Below are positions 7,607-55,406 of a stretch of 64,000 bases of DNA, in pieces. Numbering within the stretch: the stretch's first letter is position 1; every line of letters starts with the position of its first letter. Position numbers and translations under genes: made by a program. The notes beneath the pieces are model-generated. The model worked only from the letters and a program-made list of their open reading frames with translations. It had not been told where the DNA came from and did no database searches. The stretch is from a virus (Duplodnaviria; Caudoviricetes): IMG/VR virus record IMGVR_UViG_3300017791_000207, positions 32,001 to 96,000 of that record. One strand, written 5' to 3'.

Positions 7607-7737
7607 AAATTATAAAACCCTCAATTAAAGTATGGAGTACGAGTCCATACAATAAAAGAGGGGTAAAAAGTTATTAGTTGACATCTCGTACATGTCTATA
7701 AAAGACAAAGGTAAGATAAGTTTTTGACATTTCCAAA
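7607..7737 (-). promoter_or_regulatory. Sigma-A promoter plus structured 5' leader (kissing loop) of the HNH gene
   Basis: TTTG (7734-7737), 20 nt, TACCTTTG (7706-7713); two hairpins whose 7-nt loops (7637-7643, 7685-7691) are exact reverse complements. Confidence 0.75.
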
Positions 7738-7738
7738 T

Positions 7739-8860
7739 TTATTTTAGTTTTGGTGGTTCTATTAAAGGCTTAGGTAATTGATTTAGTTCAAAGAAATAAC
7801 TACCATTCTTAATTTTATAAGCAATATCCTGATCGAATTCAATAGGCTTAGGCAAAGTTCTAAACATGGAACAAAATGGATAAAATCCAAGTCCAACTGA
7901 AATACCATCAGAATTGAAGGAATTCTTTAGAATATGAACAGACCTATAATATTTCACTCCTTTATCATCCCTCAACCAAGATAACTCATAACCTAAAGAT
8001 TCAGATTTATCATTCATATGTCGGAATGGATCAAAAAGGGCTAATACTACATCTGCATCTTGAATAGTACCTGAACTATCCTGAAAATCACTTAATTTAG
8101 GTTGAAGATCACCAAGTTTTATTCTATCTGAACCTGAAATAGACCGATTCATCTGTTGTAAGATTACAGGACTCCATCCGTAAGTATCACGAGCAGTACG
8201 CATAATACTTGAAAATTTATCTATTTCTTGTTTCTTATTGGAGGTAGCTAAAAGGCCAATATGATCTGTAAGGATTAAAACCACGTGATTGGGGTGATTG
8301 GGTGTATATACTTCTCTTTCAATCACTCCTTCGGCATCATTTATTTTTTCAATTTTTCCATGCTTTTCAGCAAAACTTCGCAAATACTCTCCAATCTTAT
8401 CAGCTTTAATAACACCCTCATAACAGGTAAGCATTGGATCTATTTCATCAAAAATATACTTATACTCACCAATTAAATTAAGCTCCTTATCATCAAGCTT
8501 AGAACCTATACCAAGTATTCTTTCAACGGGTATTAATATTCCACGATCTGCAAATATTAACCTGCTCAACCATCTTGCAGTAGAACGATATTGTTTACGT
8601 TCCATACCAAAGTAGATAATTGAAATTTTTATCTTGGCTGTATCCTTATTTTTAAGATACCACAATAAAGGATGTAAAATAAATACTTCTGTGGAAAAAC
8701 TCGTCTTAGAACTGCCTGATTCTCCTCCGATTACATATGTAGTATTCTTTGCTATATTCAAGAAATAACTTAACCTTTCGAGAGGAAATGGTATAACTCC
8801 ATTTTCACCGCTCAAACCCTTCTTTATCTCAACTTTTAAATCCTCAAATATTTGACTCAT
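7739..8860 (-). CDS. dnaB: Replicative DnaB-like helicase
   Basis: GGESGSSKT Walker A, GME, ILTDHIGL, LQQMNR, PKLSDFQDSSGTIQDADVVLAL. Confidence 0.9.
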   Translation of the reverse strand: MSQIFEDLKVEIKKGLSGENGVIPFPLERLSYFLNIAKNTTYVIGGESGSSKTSFSTEVFILHPLLWYLKNKDTAKIKISIIYFGMERKQYRSTARWLSRLIFADRGILIPVERILGIGSKLDDKELNLIGEYKYIFDEIDPMLTCYEGVIKADKIGEYLRSFAEKHGKIEKINDAEGVIEREVYTPNHPNHVVLILTDHIGLLATSNKKQEIDKFSSIMRTARDTYGWSPVILQQMNRSISGSDRIKLGDLQPKLSDFQDSSGTIQDADVVLALFDPFRHMNDKSESLGYELSWLRDDKGVKYYRSVHILKNSFNSDGISVGLGFYPFCSMFRTLPKPIEFDQDIAYKIKNGSYFFELNQLPKPLIEPPKLK

Positions 8861-9891: not shown

Positions 9892-10167
9892 TTATATTCT
9901 GTGTTTGTTGCCATCTTTTTGTTTATTTATAAATATATTTAGTTTTTCTACAACTTCGTGATATGCAGAATGTTCTTTAGGTTTGTGACCATAAGTTACT
10001 ATTTTGTATTTCTTACGTAATGGAGAGTGTAAAATTTCATAGGAACATGTTTTCTGATAATTATAAGCATCTCCCATTTCATCCCACCCTTGAATATCCC
10101 ATTCAGCTTTGTCAAACCATACAGGATACCAATCATTAGGTTTAAGTAAATTGCACATATTAATCAA
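9892..10167 (-). CDS. Hypothetical protein
   Basis: 91-aa ORF overlapping the upstream gene end. Confidence 0.55.
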   Translation of the reverse strand: MINMCNLLKPNDWYPVWFDKAEWDIQGWDEMGDAYNYQKTCSYEILHSPLRKKYKIVTYGHKPKEHSAYHEVVEKLNIFINKQKDGNKHRI

Positions 10168-10594
10168 TCATAAAATAATCATTAACAATATCAGGATATT
10201 TCTCTATCACTAAATCAACTATTTCACTACTCTTAAAGCACACGCCCGAAGGATAACCCGCACCGACCTGACCGTAGCAGCCGATGACAACCCACCGAGA
10301 ACCAGACCAGTATTTTTTAAGGATATACTTATATTGAGAACCATTCTTAAAGTCAGCTACCCAATCACCATTGTAATATTTGGCAATATGAAATAGTTGC
10401 ATCTGAGCATTTAACTGTCTTTCCCACTTATCAGTTGTATTTGATGGATATGGAAGTTTAATACTTTCTATGTTTGGTGAATTGAATGTATCTTTACCAT
10501 AAGCCGTTTCAAACATTATTTGCATGGCTCTTGGACTTTCACCATAATATTTGATAGCATCTTCTTTACTGATTTCTAATTTTTTGTTTTCCAT
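10160..10594 (-). CDS. Paralog of the DGR target protein (second/remote target candidate)
   Basis: WVV..(11 aa)..PSGVCFKSS...YPDIVNDY matches the C-terminus of the 25752-26303 product. Confidence 0.8.
   Translation of the reverse strand: MENKKLEISKEDAIKYYGESPRAMQIMFETAYGKDTFNSPNIESIKLPYPSNTTDKWERQLNAQMQLFHIAKYYNGDWVADFKNGSQYKYILKKYWSGSRWVVIGCYGQVGAGYPSGVCFKSSEIVDLVIEKYPDIVNDYFMID
10236..10307 (-). repeat. VR-like region 2 (diverged copy of DGR TR/VR)
   Basis: GC-rich patch; shares cacacgcccgaagga and gacaaccca exactly with VR1; one codon shorter than TR and has several non-adenine mismatches. Confidence 0.65.
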
Positions 10595-12457: not shown

Positions 12458-12580
12458 AAACAAAAAATCCTCCAAATTAGGTTGCTGAATCACCGAAGTA
12501 ATACCTAAAATGGAGGAGAATAAGTTTATAATAGATGACTCAGCGATACAAATGTAAAACAAATTATTTACAATTCCAAA
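12458..12580 (-). promoter_or_regulatory. Sigma-A promoter plus pseudoknot-like 5' leader of the GIY-YIG gene
   Basis: TTTG (12577-12580), 20 nt, TACATTTG (12549-12556); stem 12468-12473/12512-12517; segment 12534-12544 pairs with loop 12484-12494. Confidence 0.7.
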
Positions 12581-12581
12581 T

Positions 12582-14636
12582 TTATTTTGATAATTCTTTT
12601 ATTTCTTCCTTAGTTTGAGGTTTACCATAAGTTTCAACAAGCCATTCTTTTCCATAGGTTTCAAGTTGTTTGTTAGTGGGAACCTTGTCTAAACAGAATT
12701 TACGGAAATTTTCAAATTCCTTATTTCTTTTTTCTTCTTCTCTTTTCGCGCGCGCTTTCTCAGCCAATCTTTCTTCTGTGCCATCTATTTTTTCTATGAT
12801 CTTACGACATTCATCAATGTAATAATCATAATCTATACCATATTCAGTAATCGCTGCTTCATAATAAGTATTAAAAATGGTAACTTTCTTATTAGCTTCG
12901 ATATCAATTTGTTTTTCATCCTTGAACTTACGAAATCTTCTTCCTTCCTTAGAAATAAAGTACCTGTTATTCTTTTGCTGAGGAATACTGTCATTTTCAT
13001 CTTCTCCTACCGTTTCACATTTCCATCCATGACTTGCATTGAAAGTTTTACAGAAATCGTAAATATTTTGATGATTATAAATCGTATCAGCTACAGGAAT
13101 ATCCTTTAAATAGAATTCTGATAGGGCATGAGTGACCACACATTGAGATAAGGACTTATGGTATTCTCCATCTTTAATCATCTCTTCACGAGGCTTAAAA
13201 GCACCTTTATATTTAACTTTACCTTTTACATCTTGACTTAGATAGTTATTAACATCTCTTATCACCATTTTTTGATAAGCAACATACTCCAAACCTAATT
13301 TTGTTGTTTTTTCCCATTCCTGACAAACTTCCCAATACAGGCGTTTATATTCTATAGGGATCATTACTGTAATACCATCTGTGTTTACCTGTAATACTTT
13401 TAAATTGGGTACTTTCGTCATCAACATTTCAGATAACATACAAAGTGCTAATTGTCCCGCAAGAGTAGTTTTCAAGGTATATAAAGGATCATATAAGAAG
13501 CTATACATACTATTACTCTTGCCGTAGGTAGCATTTGCGGAGATCTTCAACCCATCAGCCATGGTCTTATCTCCTCGTTTCTTAGCCTCCATACGAGGTT
13601 TTACAATGTTATCCTCATATACAGTAAGAAATTCCTTACCCAAGTGATAAGGATATAAACCATTGGTAATAGCTAAGTTAGGATACAAGGAACCTACGTC
13701 CGCATCAACAATACATTCTTTATCCGTAGATTTATATATTCCTGGTTTAATACACATGTGAATGCCTCCTGTCCCAAGGTCAAACTCAGCATCTCCAAAC
13801 GAAAAAGAGTATTTAAAAGAATCCTTTAATTCCGTTACTTCAATGCCTTTTAAATATTCAAGAAGTTCATTAAATTCAGGAGTCTCAAAACTTACATAAT
13901 CAGGGATACATTCGCGAAATCTAAAACCCTTACGAAAAGTCCTCATCTTACGAACTTCATCAATAGGTTTAGATGTATGTTCACAATATAATTTGAGTAC
14001 TAATTCTTCACCAATTTTACTATCGGAGAAATTCATACAATTTATACCATATTTGTCTCTTAATCCTCTCCTAAGTTCAAGTTTATCTAAAGTCTTGGTA
14101 TAAAATGTCTTGGTAGCTTCTACATCATTTTTATTGTATGATAGGATTTCTTGCACTTGTTCTTCTGTTTCTATTTCTTGATCGTGAGCATAAGGCATAT
14201 CTTGGACATTCGGAAACTGCATAGCTATTTCTAGCTTTTTAAGTGAACATCTCCTAGCATTATTATCGTAGTGCCAAATCTTATAAAGATCCAACTGAGG
14301 AATAAGAACTTCGACTTCCTTTACCATAGAAAATAACTCGTCAATTACTTTTTGAGCTTTTTTATAGATTTCCTTGGCTAATCGTTTTCCTGTATAAGTA
14401 AGGAATTTATCTCTATTTTTTAGAATATGATGAATTACGGGATAATCGAACTCCAAATTATTATACCCTATTTGTCCTTTAAGAGTGTCTAAATGGTCTA
14501 ATAAAGCAGGTAAATCATTTCTTTTATGCCAAATAACAAACATTTTAGTATCATCGCTGTCTCTGTCTGTACCCGTATAAGTGAAACAATTACAGAGAGT
14601 CTCAATATCATAAACTTCTACTCTATTCTTTACCAT
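12582..14636 (-). CDS. polB: Family B DNA polymerase
   Basis: YDIET, GYNNLEFD, YNKND exonuclease motifs; DADVGSLYPN, KISANATYGK, NTDG polymerase motifs. Confidence 0.95.
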   Translation of the reverse strand: MVKNRVEVYDIETLCNCFTYTGTDRDSDDTKMFVIWHKRNDLPALLDHLDTLKGQIGYNNLEFDYPVIHHILKNRDKFLTYTGKRLAKEIYKKAQKVIDELFSMVKEVEVLIPQLDLYKIWHYDNNARRCSLKKLEIAMQFPNVQDMPYAHDQEIETEEQVQEILSYNKNDVEATKTFYTKTLDKLELRRGLRDKYGINCMNFSDSKIGEELVLKLYCEHTSKPIDEVRKMRTFRKGFRFRECIPDYVSFETPEFNELLEYLKGIEVTELKDSFKYSFSFGDAEFDLGTGGIHMCIKPGIYKSTDKECIVDADVGSLYPNLAITNGLYPYHLGKEFLTVYEDNIVKPRMEAKKRGDKTMADGLKISANATYGKSNSMYSFLYDPLYTLKTTLAGQLALCMLSEMLMTKVPNLKVLQVNTDGITVMIPIEYKRLYWEVCQEWEKTTKLGLEYVAYQKMVIRDVNNYLSQDVKGKVKYKGAFKPREEMIKDGEYHKSLSQCVVTHALSEFYLKDIPVADTIYNHQNIYDFCKTFNASHGWKCETVGEDENDSIPQQKNNRYFISKEGRRFRKFKDEKQIDIEANKKVTIFNTYYEAAITEYGIDYDYYIDECRKIIEKIDGTEERLAEKARAKREEEKRNKEFENFRKFCLDKVPTNKQLETYGKEWLVETYGKPQTKEEIKELSK

Positions 14637-24340: not shown

Positions 24341-24519
24341 TATATTCTAAATATTGTTTTGATTAAATTTTTAGTTGCCAAATCAGAAATAGTTTTAACT
24401 ACGCCTGATTGTTGTCTTTCTAAATTTTGAGTATATCTTTTCTTATACTCTTCTCGAACTTGTTCAGATTTTTTTAATGACCATTTTCCATGAACAAGAT
24501 ATTTGTCTATTGTATTCAT
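24340..24519 (-). CDS. 59-aa ORF linking DGR RT and helicase (not in ORF track)
   Basis: MNTIDKYLVHGKWSLKKSEQVREEYKKRYTQNLERQQSGVVKTISDLATKNLIKTIFRI; ATGA overlap with RT stop, TAATG overlap with helicase start. Confidence 0.6.
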   Translation of the reverse strand: MNTIDKYLVHGKWSLKKSEQVREEYKKRYTQNLERQQSGVVKTISDLATKNLIKTIFRI

Positions 24520-25457
24520 TGTATTAAAAGTTTAGCTTCAAGATTCCTCGCGTTGGCATGACCAGTCCAACCAAGATAGGAAGCGATTGATGTTAATTTG
24601 TGCCTGTTTCTTCGGAAATTTTCTTTGATATATTTTCTTACTTTTACTTTATCCTGATCAATTACATAACCAAGGAAGTCCAAAGGTCTTTTATTGATAG
24701 GAAATACTTGTTTATTCGAGAGTTTCAATCTTAATTTTTTATCAAGGTAATCTTCAATCTCATTTTTCAAGTAATATAAATACTCTTTACTCTCATGAAA
24801 TATTACAATGTCATCGCAGTAGATAGCAAGATATTTTATTTTTATGACTTCTTTAAGGTAATGTGAGAATTCGTTAAGATAAACATTTCCAAACCACTGC
24901 GAGGTAAAATTACCAAGTACGCAGCCATGCTCGATAGAATCAATAATCAAATCTAACAACCACAATAAATCAGGATCTTTAAACTTACGTCTCAGAAAGC
25001 CTTTCAAAAGGTCGTGAGATAGTGATGGGTAAAATTTCTGAATATCCATCTTCAAAACATACTTAGTTCCTTTCCTATCTTTAAGATGTTTCTTAATGTC
25101 TTTCAAGCACTTATGGACTCCGCGCGATTTAAGGCAAGAATAGGTCTGAGAAATAAAACTATCTTTTAAAATATCTCCAATGACAAGTATTATCGCCCAT
25201 TGAACAACACGATCTTTAAATGGAAGCTTTGAAATAATTCTTTCTTTAGGCTCATAAATCTTGAATACGAAATACTCCGATAACTTATAGGTTCTTGTTA
25301 ATAATTCTTGCTGTAAGAGTCTCAAATTTTCACTTAAATTACTGTTCCATATCCTAACATCCTTCTTCTTTCTTTTGCCTTTCTGCGCCTTCTGAGAAGC
25401 CTTTATGAGGTTCTCCATACTCACTATCTTATAGAATAAATTTCCTTTTCTTTTCAT
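24516..25457 (-). CDS. DGR reverse transcriptase
   Basis: MKRKGNLF..I...NL..A, EPKERII..LPFKDRVVQ, KMDIQKFYPS, GNFTSQ, YCDD, DFLGY; 313 aa with no maturase or endonuclease domain. Confidence 0.95.
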   Translation of the reverse strand: MKRKGNLFYKIVSMENLIKASQKAQKGKRKKKDVRIWNSNLSENLRLLQQELLTRTYKLSEYFVFKIYEPKERIISKLPFKDRVVQWAIILVIGDILKDSFISQTYSCLKSRGVHKCLKDIKKHLKDRKGTKYVLKMDIQKFYPSLSHDLLKGFLRRKFKDPDLLWLLDLIIDSIEHGCVLGNFTSQWFGNVYLNEFSHYLKEVIKIKYLAIYCDDIVIFHESKEYLYYLKNEIEDYLDKKLRLKLSNKQVFPINKRPLDFLGYVIDQDKVKVRKYIKENFRRNRHKLTSIASYLGWTGHANARNLEAKLLIQ

Positions 25458-25740
25458 TCTTTTATTTTATCACTCAACATCCCTGAGTGCTTATTACTAA
25501 GTCTCTTTCTACAATGATACTAAAGCCCGTTCAACTCATCTGTTTTTTACCACGGCTAGAAATGAGAAATATATTCTAACTTTATAGGTAGGGTCTAATT
25601 GTCTTTCTTTTTTATAATAAACATACGTCTGAAGGAATCATCGTGTTGTTGTTCCAATTGTTGTTGTAGTTGACAACTCAGTCGTGATCAGACTTTGACT
25701 AAGGGGGTAGAATGTAGACACATTCAATTAGACCTTTTAC
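25458..25740 (-). ncRNA. DGR template RNA (TR plus flanks and spacer)
   Basis: Non-coding interval; 10-bp inverted repeat 25592-25601/25725-25734 encloses TR; hairpin 25471-25489 just before RT start. Confidence 0.7.
25619..25693 (-). repeat. DGR template repeat (TR)
   Basis: AAC-rich on the minus strand; 75-nt ungapped match to VR1, 17 mismatches, all at TR adenines. Confidence 0.95.
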
Positions 25741-25751
25741 TTGCTTTTATA

Positions 25752-26303
25752 CTACTCGTTTATCATTGAATAGTCATCATATATTTCAGGGAACATTTCA
25801 TATGCTTTTAAAGCTAATTTTGAAGATTTAAAACACACGCCCGAAGGAAGCAACGCGCCGTTGCTCCAATCGTAGCTGCAGTAGACAACCCAGCCGAGAT
25901 CAGACGAATAATACTTGTATGGAAAATATTTACCCATACTTGTATCTTTCCAAGTAAGCTCAGTTCCTCCATTCATTACTTCCGAAATAATCATCATCTT
26001 TTCAGATGCATTGATACTTTTTTGACGTGGGGTGAGTTTATTACCTTGGTAAGGAAGAACCAATTTATCTAGTCTTTCTTGAATGACAGACTTATCGATA
26101 TCTCCTGGTTCTTTAAGGTATTTCTTCAGAGTTTTAGTTTGTTCTTCGTTGGCAGCTTCAAACATTTCAGATACTTGTGCTTGTGTAAGTTCTGTATCTT
26201 CAAATAGAGAAGTCATTTTCTTGATTTTACTCTTCCAATCTTGACAAGCGATATCAAAAATGGCTTTCATACCTTCGTAAGGTACTTTTTGTGTGTTACT
26301 CAT
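25752..26303 (-). CDS. DGR target protein (about 183 aa, VR in C-terminal domain)
   Basis: Contains VR1; likely start MSNTQK at 26303 because the longer ORF overlaps the upstream gene. Confidence 0.88.
   Translation of the reverse strand: MSNTQKVPYEGMKAIFDIACQDWKSKIKKMTSLFEDTELTQAQVSEMFEAANEEQTKTLKKYLKEPGDIDKSVIQERLDKLVLPYQGNKLTPRQKSINASEKMMIISEVMNGGTELTWKDTSMGKYFPYKYYSSDLGWVVYCSYDWSNGALLPSGVCFKSSKLALKAYEMFPEIYDDYSMINE
25831..25905 (-). repeat. DGR variable repeat (VR1)
   Basis: Encodes SDLGWVVYCSYDWSNGALLPSGVCF near the target C-terminus. Confidence 0.95.
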
Positions 26304-39310: not shown

Positions 39311-39334
39311 ATTTACAAAATAATTAACAAAATA

Positions 39335-39366
39335 TTTGGTTAATTCAATTATTTAACATACCTTTG
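39335..39366 (+). promoter_or_regulatory. Sigma-A promoter
   Basis: TTTG, 20 nt, TACCTTTG. Confidence 0.75.
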
Positions 39367-39929
39367 TATCAATAAAAGTAAAAATGCAATACTTAATAGA
39401 AATAACAATGGGAGAAGTGAAAGCTTCTTATTGGGTAGATGATCCTCCTGATATCTTAGATTTGGAGAGTAAATACCCTAATGCCAAAGTTGTAATAACA
39501 CCTCAGGAATGACAAAGAAAGAATTTTTAAAGGATTGTGATCCTAATATTTTAAAATACTCAATTACAACAGTTCAAGAAAAAGACGGTAGTTTAGTAGA
39601 AGGTATTCTTTTAAGAATAGGTAAAACTCAAAAACAAATTCAAAAAGAGGTTTGTGAACATGATAATAAGTGTTCTTTAACATTTCAAGAATTTGAAATT
39701 TTACTTACAGAAAAAGAATTAGAACACTTATTAAAACAAGTTCAGTAATGAAACATAATTTATATATGCTCAAAGGTAATCTTCCAAATGGAGAACCTAT
39801 TGAAGAGATTTTAAGGTCTAAGACCAATCGTACAGGTAAAGTAGTATCACAGGTAGAATCTGCCCTCCATCATAAGTATGGTATCGTACTACAAGAATTA
39901 ACTGATGTAACCATAAGCAAAATTATAAG

Positions 39930-48368: not shown

Positions 48369-48430
48369 TAATTTTTCAAGCGGATTTGAATCCTATTATG
48401 CTATATATCTGCGGAAAACTTTCTTAAAAC

Positions 48431-48461
48431 TTTGTTAATCAATTTACTTAACATATCTTTG
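48431..48461 (+). promoter_or_regulatory. Sigma-A promoter for the capsid operon
   Basis: TTTG, 19 nt, TATCTTTG. Confidence 0.75.
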
Positions 48462-48510
48462 CATTACAATTTCGAGGTTTAAACTACCTTAAAATCAATC
48501 AACTACAATA

Positions 48511-55180: not shown

Positions 55181-55248
55181 ATTCTATTATTTATATTACA
55201 AAAGTAAGCAGATATTCCAAAATAAAAAAGTTAAATCTTTGAATTAAA

Positions 55249-55280
55249 TTTGGTAGATTCATTTTTTCAACTTATCTTTG
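55249..55280 (+). promoter_or_regulatory. Sigma-A promoter
   Basis: TTTG, 20 nt, TATCTTTG. Confidence 0.75.
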
Positions 55281-55406
55281 CATTAACATCTTAAAATCCA
55301 AGTATATGGATGAAGAATTGACTGAAGAACAAGTGGAAGAGAAAGTAAGATATTATAAATGGTTACTTTTTCATGATAATATAATTAAAGAACTAGAATT
55401 AGGAAA

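Follow-up and report, generated by a model that had tools for sequence, protein, structure and literature searches.

The gene at positions 10160 to 10594 of a 64,000-nt stretch of phage DNA (the window) encodes a protein of 144 amino acids, P0001, whose variable region (VR2) is a genuine product of a diversity-generating retroelement (DGR), and the gene is a remote, paralogous second DGR target. The same genome holds a DGR with a related primary target (target 1, carrying VR1), and VR2 was shown not to have been written from the template repeat (TR) that this DGR carries at present. The explanation that we favor, and think probably correct, is that VR2 was templated by a different TR allele, that the remote target was uncoupled from the resident template by recombination or cassette replacement, and that it is now a fixed variant.

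Results

A compact DGR in a complete phage genome

The source sequence is a single contig of 115,287 bp with a GC content of 32%, and the window corresponds to its bases 32001 to 96000. The two ends of the contig overlap by 141 bp (genome positions 1 to 141 and 115147 to 115287), which indicates a complete phage genome that was circularly assembled or is circularly permuted or terminally redundant. Target 1, the TR, and the reverse transcriptase (RT) gene form a compact DGR on the minus strand (Table 1). Of the 26 adenines in the TR, 18 are replaced in VR1, and the remaining bases of the 76 nt compared are all alike; because the departures are restricted to adenines, the resident DGR, with its RT, TR, and VR1, looks functional. 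Its RT is approximately 45% identical to RTs of crAss-like phages, the DGRs of which aim at Mtd-like tail proteins.

A family profile search of the whole genome recovered two copies of the target family, the P0001 gene and target 1, and no third paralog in the 115,287 bp. The two proteins are 36% identical over 106 amino acids (BLASTP, E = 5e-17), and P0001 matched no Pfam or PHROG family. The neighbors of the P0001 gene are early/replication genes, including those for a DnaB-like helicase (7739 to 8860) and a DNA polymerase (12582 to 14636); since the gene sits among replication genes, we regard P0001 as a nonstructural DGR target. Elsewhere between genes, repeated motifs of about 40 nt were observed at window positions 7705 to 7745, 12548 to 12588, 39332 to 39371, 48427 to 48466, and 55246 to 55285; they lie upstream of genes, end in a TTTG...CCTTTG-like core, and may be Bacteroidota-type promoters.

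Table 1. Positions in the window of the DGR components and of the features of the remote target gene
Feature	Position	Strand	Basis or remark
P0001, short-form paralog of the DGR target (144 aa)	10160-10594	minus	BLASTP to target 1, family profile
VR2 (73 nt, 24 codons)	10235-10307	minus	DGR-type composition, hypervariable against ortholog, misfits resident TR
15-nt exact match to VR1, 3' end of VR2	10239-10253	minus	IMH-like constant end; 20/21 nt identical if extended
9-nt exact match to VR1, 5' scaffold (Trp-Val-Val codons)	10286-10294	minus	Sequence comparison
DGR reverse transcriptase (313 aa)	24516-25457	minus	PF00078, E = 1.7e-15; phrog_1423, E = 2.9e-107
Resident TR (76 nt, 25 codons)	25618-25693	minus	Adenine-only match to VR1
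DGR target 1	25752-26303	minus	Adjoins TR-RT; carries VR1
VR1	25830-25905	minus	0 non-A mismatches, 18/26 TR adenines changed relative to TR

VR2 carries the marks of DGR mutagenesis

An earlier note on this DNA, made from its letters and reading frames, had drawn attention to a GC-rich patch in the P0001 gene, and the patch is real. In a scan with 72-nt windows, it ranks first both in the 64-kb window and in the 115-kb genome, with 62.5% GC (top window at 10237 to 10308, or at 10239 to 10310 in the genome scan) against a genome mean of 32% (standard deviation [SD], 5.9%), and VR1 is the second most GC-rich such window of the genome (59.7%). The coding strand of VR2 has 4 adenines in 72 nt, the minimum for either strand of the genome (mean, ∼24; SD, ∼5). 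All variable codons of VR2 are of the type NNC or NNT, as expected from AAY template codons. The other particulars of the earlier note were likewise recovered: the C-terminal motif that it quoted for the 144-amino-acid protein and the counterpart in target 1 are both present as described, as are the exact matches of 15 and 9 nt between VR2 and VR1 (Table 1), and in line with the distance of 15.6 kb from the DGR given there, the spacing between the two VRs is 15,598 nt.

The nucleotide identity of VR1 and VR2 is 67%, compared to 46% elsewhere in the two paralogs, and the identity at third codon positions is 75% inside the VR and 39% outside it. The VR segment is therefore of more recent shared nucleotide origin than the rest of the two genes.

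A search of 5.8 billion proteins gave a single close ortholog of P0001, namely P0002 (145 amino acids, 72% identical). The two share 104 of 130 residues outside the VR and 1 of 15 inside it (Fisher's exact test, P = 2.6e-8, for this one ortholog only). The earlier note had named as a refutation homologs from DGR-free phages that carry the same segment with ordinary substitution patterns, and no such pattern was observed: the single ortholog found is hypervariable at exactly this place, and the RT-less L015 described below has VRs that agree with a relative's TR. VR2 is recognized as DGR-written because its composition is extreme, its variable codons are NNC or NNT, the hypervariability between the orthologs is confined to the VR, and the family consists of habitual DGR targets. 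One could also read the patch as a motif rich in Gly, Cys, and Tyr that is conserved in a paralogous protein and owes nothing to a DGR, and the scaffold residues that flank it are indeed conserved family-wide at the protein level. We give this reading almost no credence, as it is contradicted by the GC and adenine content, which is extreme for this genome, by the synonymous-site identity to VR1 (75%, versus 39% elsewhere in the genes), by the hypervariability of the patch against P0002, and by the dozens of loci in which members of this family are targeted by DGRs.

The resident TR did not write VR2

In the best gapped, adenine-tolerant alignment with the resident TR, VR2 has 11 non-A mismatches and 36 non-A matches, and 23 of the 26 adenines are changed. 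VR1 has no non-A mismatch, and VR2 is one codon (3 nt) shorter than both the TR and VR1, in agreement with the earlier description of VR2 as lacking one codon and having non-adenine mismatches. A shuffle test of this alignment (11 mismatches versus a mean of 17.6 with an SD of 3.6) is uninformative, the adenine wildcards being permissive. The three variable codons that adjoin the 3' constant end of VR2 already contain 3 non-A mismatches to the TR, so that VR2 bears no trace of retrohoming from the present TR, not even of a partial event anchored at the 3' end. At the protein level, six residues of VR2 cannot be reached from the codons of the TR through adenine changes. Thus, although a DGR-type RT and a TR reside in the same genome, VR2 lacks the pattern by which nonadjacent targets are assigned to a TR (Wu et al. 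2018), namely differences at TR adenines only, with minor exceptions allowed.

We then looked for another template. A second TR within the genome, one of three origins that had been proposed for VR2, can be excluded, as an ungapped, adenine-tolerant scan of both strands of the 115 kb came back empty. Probes of 96, 72, and ∼48 nt were used, the short, half-length ones of which would also catch a gapped TR, and the best scores of 13 to 20, 13 to 14, and 7 to 8 non-A mismatches, respectively, equal background. A 56-nt pattern that allows at each position the VR2 base or A matched only VR2 itself within the 64-kb window and had 0 matches in the IMG/VR and JGI metagenome contigs, and none of 86 fetched loci contained a TR cognate to VR2. 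Close relatives at the DNA level were sought with P0001, target 1, and the target-1 profile, and none were found in IMG/VR, JGI, or GTDB genomes; a tblastn search against GenBank phages likewise found nothing. Close relatives were compared as proteins from the Logan assemblies.

Remote and stranded targets occur elsewhere in the family

The target family comprises 2,208 representatives at an E value of ≤1e-3, with long and short forms. We surveyed 80 IMG/VR loci that hold a member and scored the fit between VR and TR per 60 nt. An RT lies within 10 kb in 55 of these 80 loci, the usual layout being a tandem of two or three paralogs with a single TR and the RT behind it, and nearly all VRs in the surveyed loci agree with a TR at every non-A position (0 non-A mismatches per 60 nt). 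A different layout, in which each target gene has a TR of its own and a single RT is surrounded by two or three TRs, was seen at L029:4956-7724, L009:5131-7242, and L002:8273-10590.

It is common in this family for targets to lie far from the RT inside a single phage genome: genes located 30 to 42 kb from the RT and TR have VRs with 0 to 1 non-A mismatches and 7 to 14 changed adenines (L064, L080, and L072; the corresponding locus pairs are L064 with L084, L080 with L085, and L072 with L081). The family also offers a direct precedent for the uncoupling of target and template. The 99%-complete genome L015 has two target genes (L015:9583-10480) and lacks an RT altogether. Its identity to L011 (L011:9583-12019) is 97% as far as a point shortly beyond these targets, at which the TR-RT module has been replaced, and the VRs of L015 fit the TR of L011 with 0 non-A mismatches.

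VRs that fit their TR imperfectly were found as well. Partly decayed VRs with 3 to 7 non-A mismatches stand beside matched ones in L023, L055, L058, and L007. The middle gene of three tandem targets at L023:9977-10393 exceeds the shared TR by one codon and departs from it elsewhere at adenines only; the extra codon may have arisen by RT slippage or duplication in an AAC/TAC run. Because of this gene, a length difference of one codon is in itself not diagnostic of a mismatch between VR and TR.

VR2 retains a constant end that resembles an IMH

The ends of the VRs were analyzed in 37 nonredundant TR groups among L001 to L080, each with at least 2 VRs. At TR adenines of the 5' part and of the final ∼18 nt of the homology, all coresident VRs have the same non-A base in 58 to 98% of cases, and for the central TR adenines this value is 15 to 35%. 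The constant differences between TR and VR include synonymous sites, and the constant end positions look like family-wide differences of the IMH/IMH* kind or like a strongly selected scaffold. The truly diversified part of the homology is the central ∼40 nt only. The 15-nt identity of VR2 to VR1 is this IMH-like constant end, and VR2 has thereby kept the likely targeting element. A search for a BPP-1-type hairpin downstream of VR1 or VR2 yielded no structure better than those of shuffled sequence.

With an IMH-like 3' end and a 5' scaffold identical to those of VR1, VR2 might still be rewritten by the resident DGR. VR2 would then be an active trans target, and its sequence, which is an assembly consensus, would show a variant that has not recently been overwritten. 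The identity of the 3' end (15/15 nt, and 20/21 nt when extended) and of the 9-nt 5' scaffold to VR1 speaks for this view, as do the active appearance of RT, TR, and VR1 and the remote targets of the family that are in use at 30 to 42 kb. We nevertheless consider it unlikely, as retrohoming would leave TR bases at non-A sites beginning from the 3' end and 3 mismatches adjoin the constant end there. VR2 has kept its constant end intact and yet has not been overwritten, so rewriting probably happens rarely, if ever.

Template types appear to be reciprocally arranged in the sister phages

The ortholog of target 1, P0005, and the ortholog of P0001, P0002, are each reported from a contig of 117,114 bp and are hence treated as belonging to one sister phage; the assignment of template types given below draws on these two protein sequences from contigs of equal length. 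All orthologs of target 1 have their VR in a 24-codon form except the one in the 115,287-bp genome. The VR of P0001, itself of 24 codons, is identical to the VR of P0005 at 16 of 24 positions, the best value of all pairs. Both share the presumed fixed positions Ser-Gly-Ser, Gln-Val-Gly-Ala, and Pro-Ser-Gly-Val-Cys-Phe, and the eight differences between them all fall on codons that are NNC, NNT, or CGG in P0001. Conversely, the remote paralog of the sister phage, P0002, has the 25-codon form and is compatible with the resident TR at 23 of 25 codons, the two exceptions being an adjacent Trp/Phe swap. Each phage thus seems to carry both template types, with one VR apiece and in a reciprocal arrangement, and the protein comparison suggests that the template type of VR2 is that of the sister's primary target, although the shared four-residue core could instead reflect convergent selection. 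With regard to the two remaining origins that the earlier note had proposed, another or older TR allele and a now-frozen product, the identity at 16 of 24 positions and the shared fixed positions lend support to both at the level of proteins.

The arrangement bears on a simpler course of events, in which an older resident TR wrote VR2 in place, after which either the TR drifted together with VR1 or VR2 acquired point mutations and a codon deletion, with no recombination involved. Such a descent would fit the 36 of 47 aligned non-A positions at which VR2 still matches the TR, the 23 of 26 changed adenines, and the occurrence in the family both of length differences by a codon in otherwise well-matched arrays (L023) and of partly decayed VRs (3 to 7 non-A mismatches) beside matched ones. 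We regard it as rather unlikely all the same, as it leaves the criss-cross unexplained in which P0002 fits the resident TR (23/25) and VR2 fits P0005 (16/24). Furthermore, 4 of the 6 positions at which VR2 is incompatible with the TR are also incompatible in P0005, two of them with the same residue, and all other orthologs of target 1 have the 24-codon form.

According to the explanation that we favor, the TR that wrote VR2 would have been a 24-codon one in which a Gln-Val-Gly-Ala core is fixed, as in the presumed template of P0005, rather than the resident 25-codon TR, located 15.3 kb from VR2. Two lineages may have existed, each with one TR matched to both of its targets, and mosaics with a mismatched remote VR would have arisen by homologous recombination between the loci, which lie 15.6 kb from each other, or by replacement of the cassette of target, TR, and RT. 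Recombination or turnover of the TR is the most likely cause of the uncoupling. The roughly equal divergence of the two ortholog pairs (72% identity for the remote gene and 68% for target 1) is compatible with recombination or cassette replacement, and P0001 would now behave as a variant that has become fixed, in a gene that is otherwise conserved and intact. The criss-cross might also record writing across genomes, with TR cDNA of a coinfecting phage homing into the IMH-compatible remote VR of a relative. We hold this to be very unlikely; if it were true, DGR diversification would be shared in trans between coinfecting phages rather than being private to one genome.

Comparison to known DGR systems

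Nonadjacent DGR targets within phages or prophages have been documented (Wu et al. 2018, PMC5758913), and Quimbyvirus has a second, distal target (Benler et al. 2021, PMC8008677). Like these targets, the P0001 gene is a paralogous second target kilobases away from the RT and TR, in the same phage genome and outside the structural module. They are, however, defined by A-to-N-only differences from their TR, whereas VR2 has 11 non-A mismatches and a gap, and unlike them, P0001 shows no match to C-type lectins. A parallel with respect to the missing template is DGR 7 of the bacterium Thiohalocapsa PB-PSB1, an incomplete DGR locus whose VRs lack a perfectly matching TR in the genome (Dore et al. 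2024, PMC10907252). VR2 similarly combines a DGR signature with the lack of a cognate TR in the assembled genome; in contrast to DGR 7, an intact, apparently active, and mismatched DGR of the same target family lies 15 kb away, and the evidence points to the template type of a sister phage.

Among the loci of the target family itself, the tandem multitarget DGRs of IMG/VR (L006, L014, and L035) agree with the present case in protein family, position of the VR, constant VR ends, and compact DGR with no accessory gene between TR and RT. There, two or three paralogs lie directly upstream of one TR and all have 0 non-A mismatches; the P0001 gene is instead 15.6 kb away and misfits. L015 and L011 share with it the stranding of VR-bearing targets, which in that pair came about by replacement of the TR-RT module, with the mosaic breakpoint just past the targets. 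L015 has no DGR, and the TR of its relative remains a match for its VRs, whereas the phage that encodes P0001 keeps a DGR of another template type. Orphaned DGR targets are hence already known, and what is added here is the coexistence of such a target with a live, mismatched DGR, together with the inferred reciprocal pattern in the sister phage.

A live DGR and a paralogous target that does not match it thus occur together in one complete phage genome. DGR surveys require adenine-only differences from a TR, and stranded or cross-templated VRs are therefore missed by design. As the case hints, recombination may readily separate remote targets from their template and would in this way limit the useful distance between target and RT. 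If the reciprocal pattern holds true in the sister genome, the two phages constitute a natural experiment on the coevolution of DGR templates and targets.

Predicted structure of the target family

Members of the target family abound in gut phages, crAss-like ones among them; the family is nonstructural and has no known fold. Searches of the PDB with the models of P0001 and target 1 gave no convincing match for either protein: Foldseek returned nothing at an E value of ≤0.001 for the P0001 model, for which the best VIA-align score was a Z value of 3.4, and no match to C-type lectin or Ig folds was obtained in the structure searches with models of the family. The family may thus represent, as judged from these models, a DGR scaffold outside the two known folds (C-type lectin and Ig-like). 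The look-alikes of the P0001 model in BFVD are uncharacterized proteins of crAss-like and other uncultured phages only. The AF2 model of P0001 itself (pLDDT, 93.2) consists of helices, a beta-hairpin, and two C-terminal helices, and it places the VR on the second strand of the hairpin and the loop that follows.
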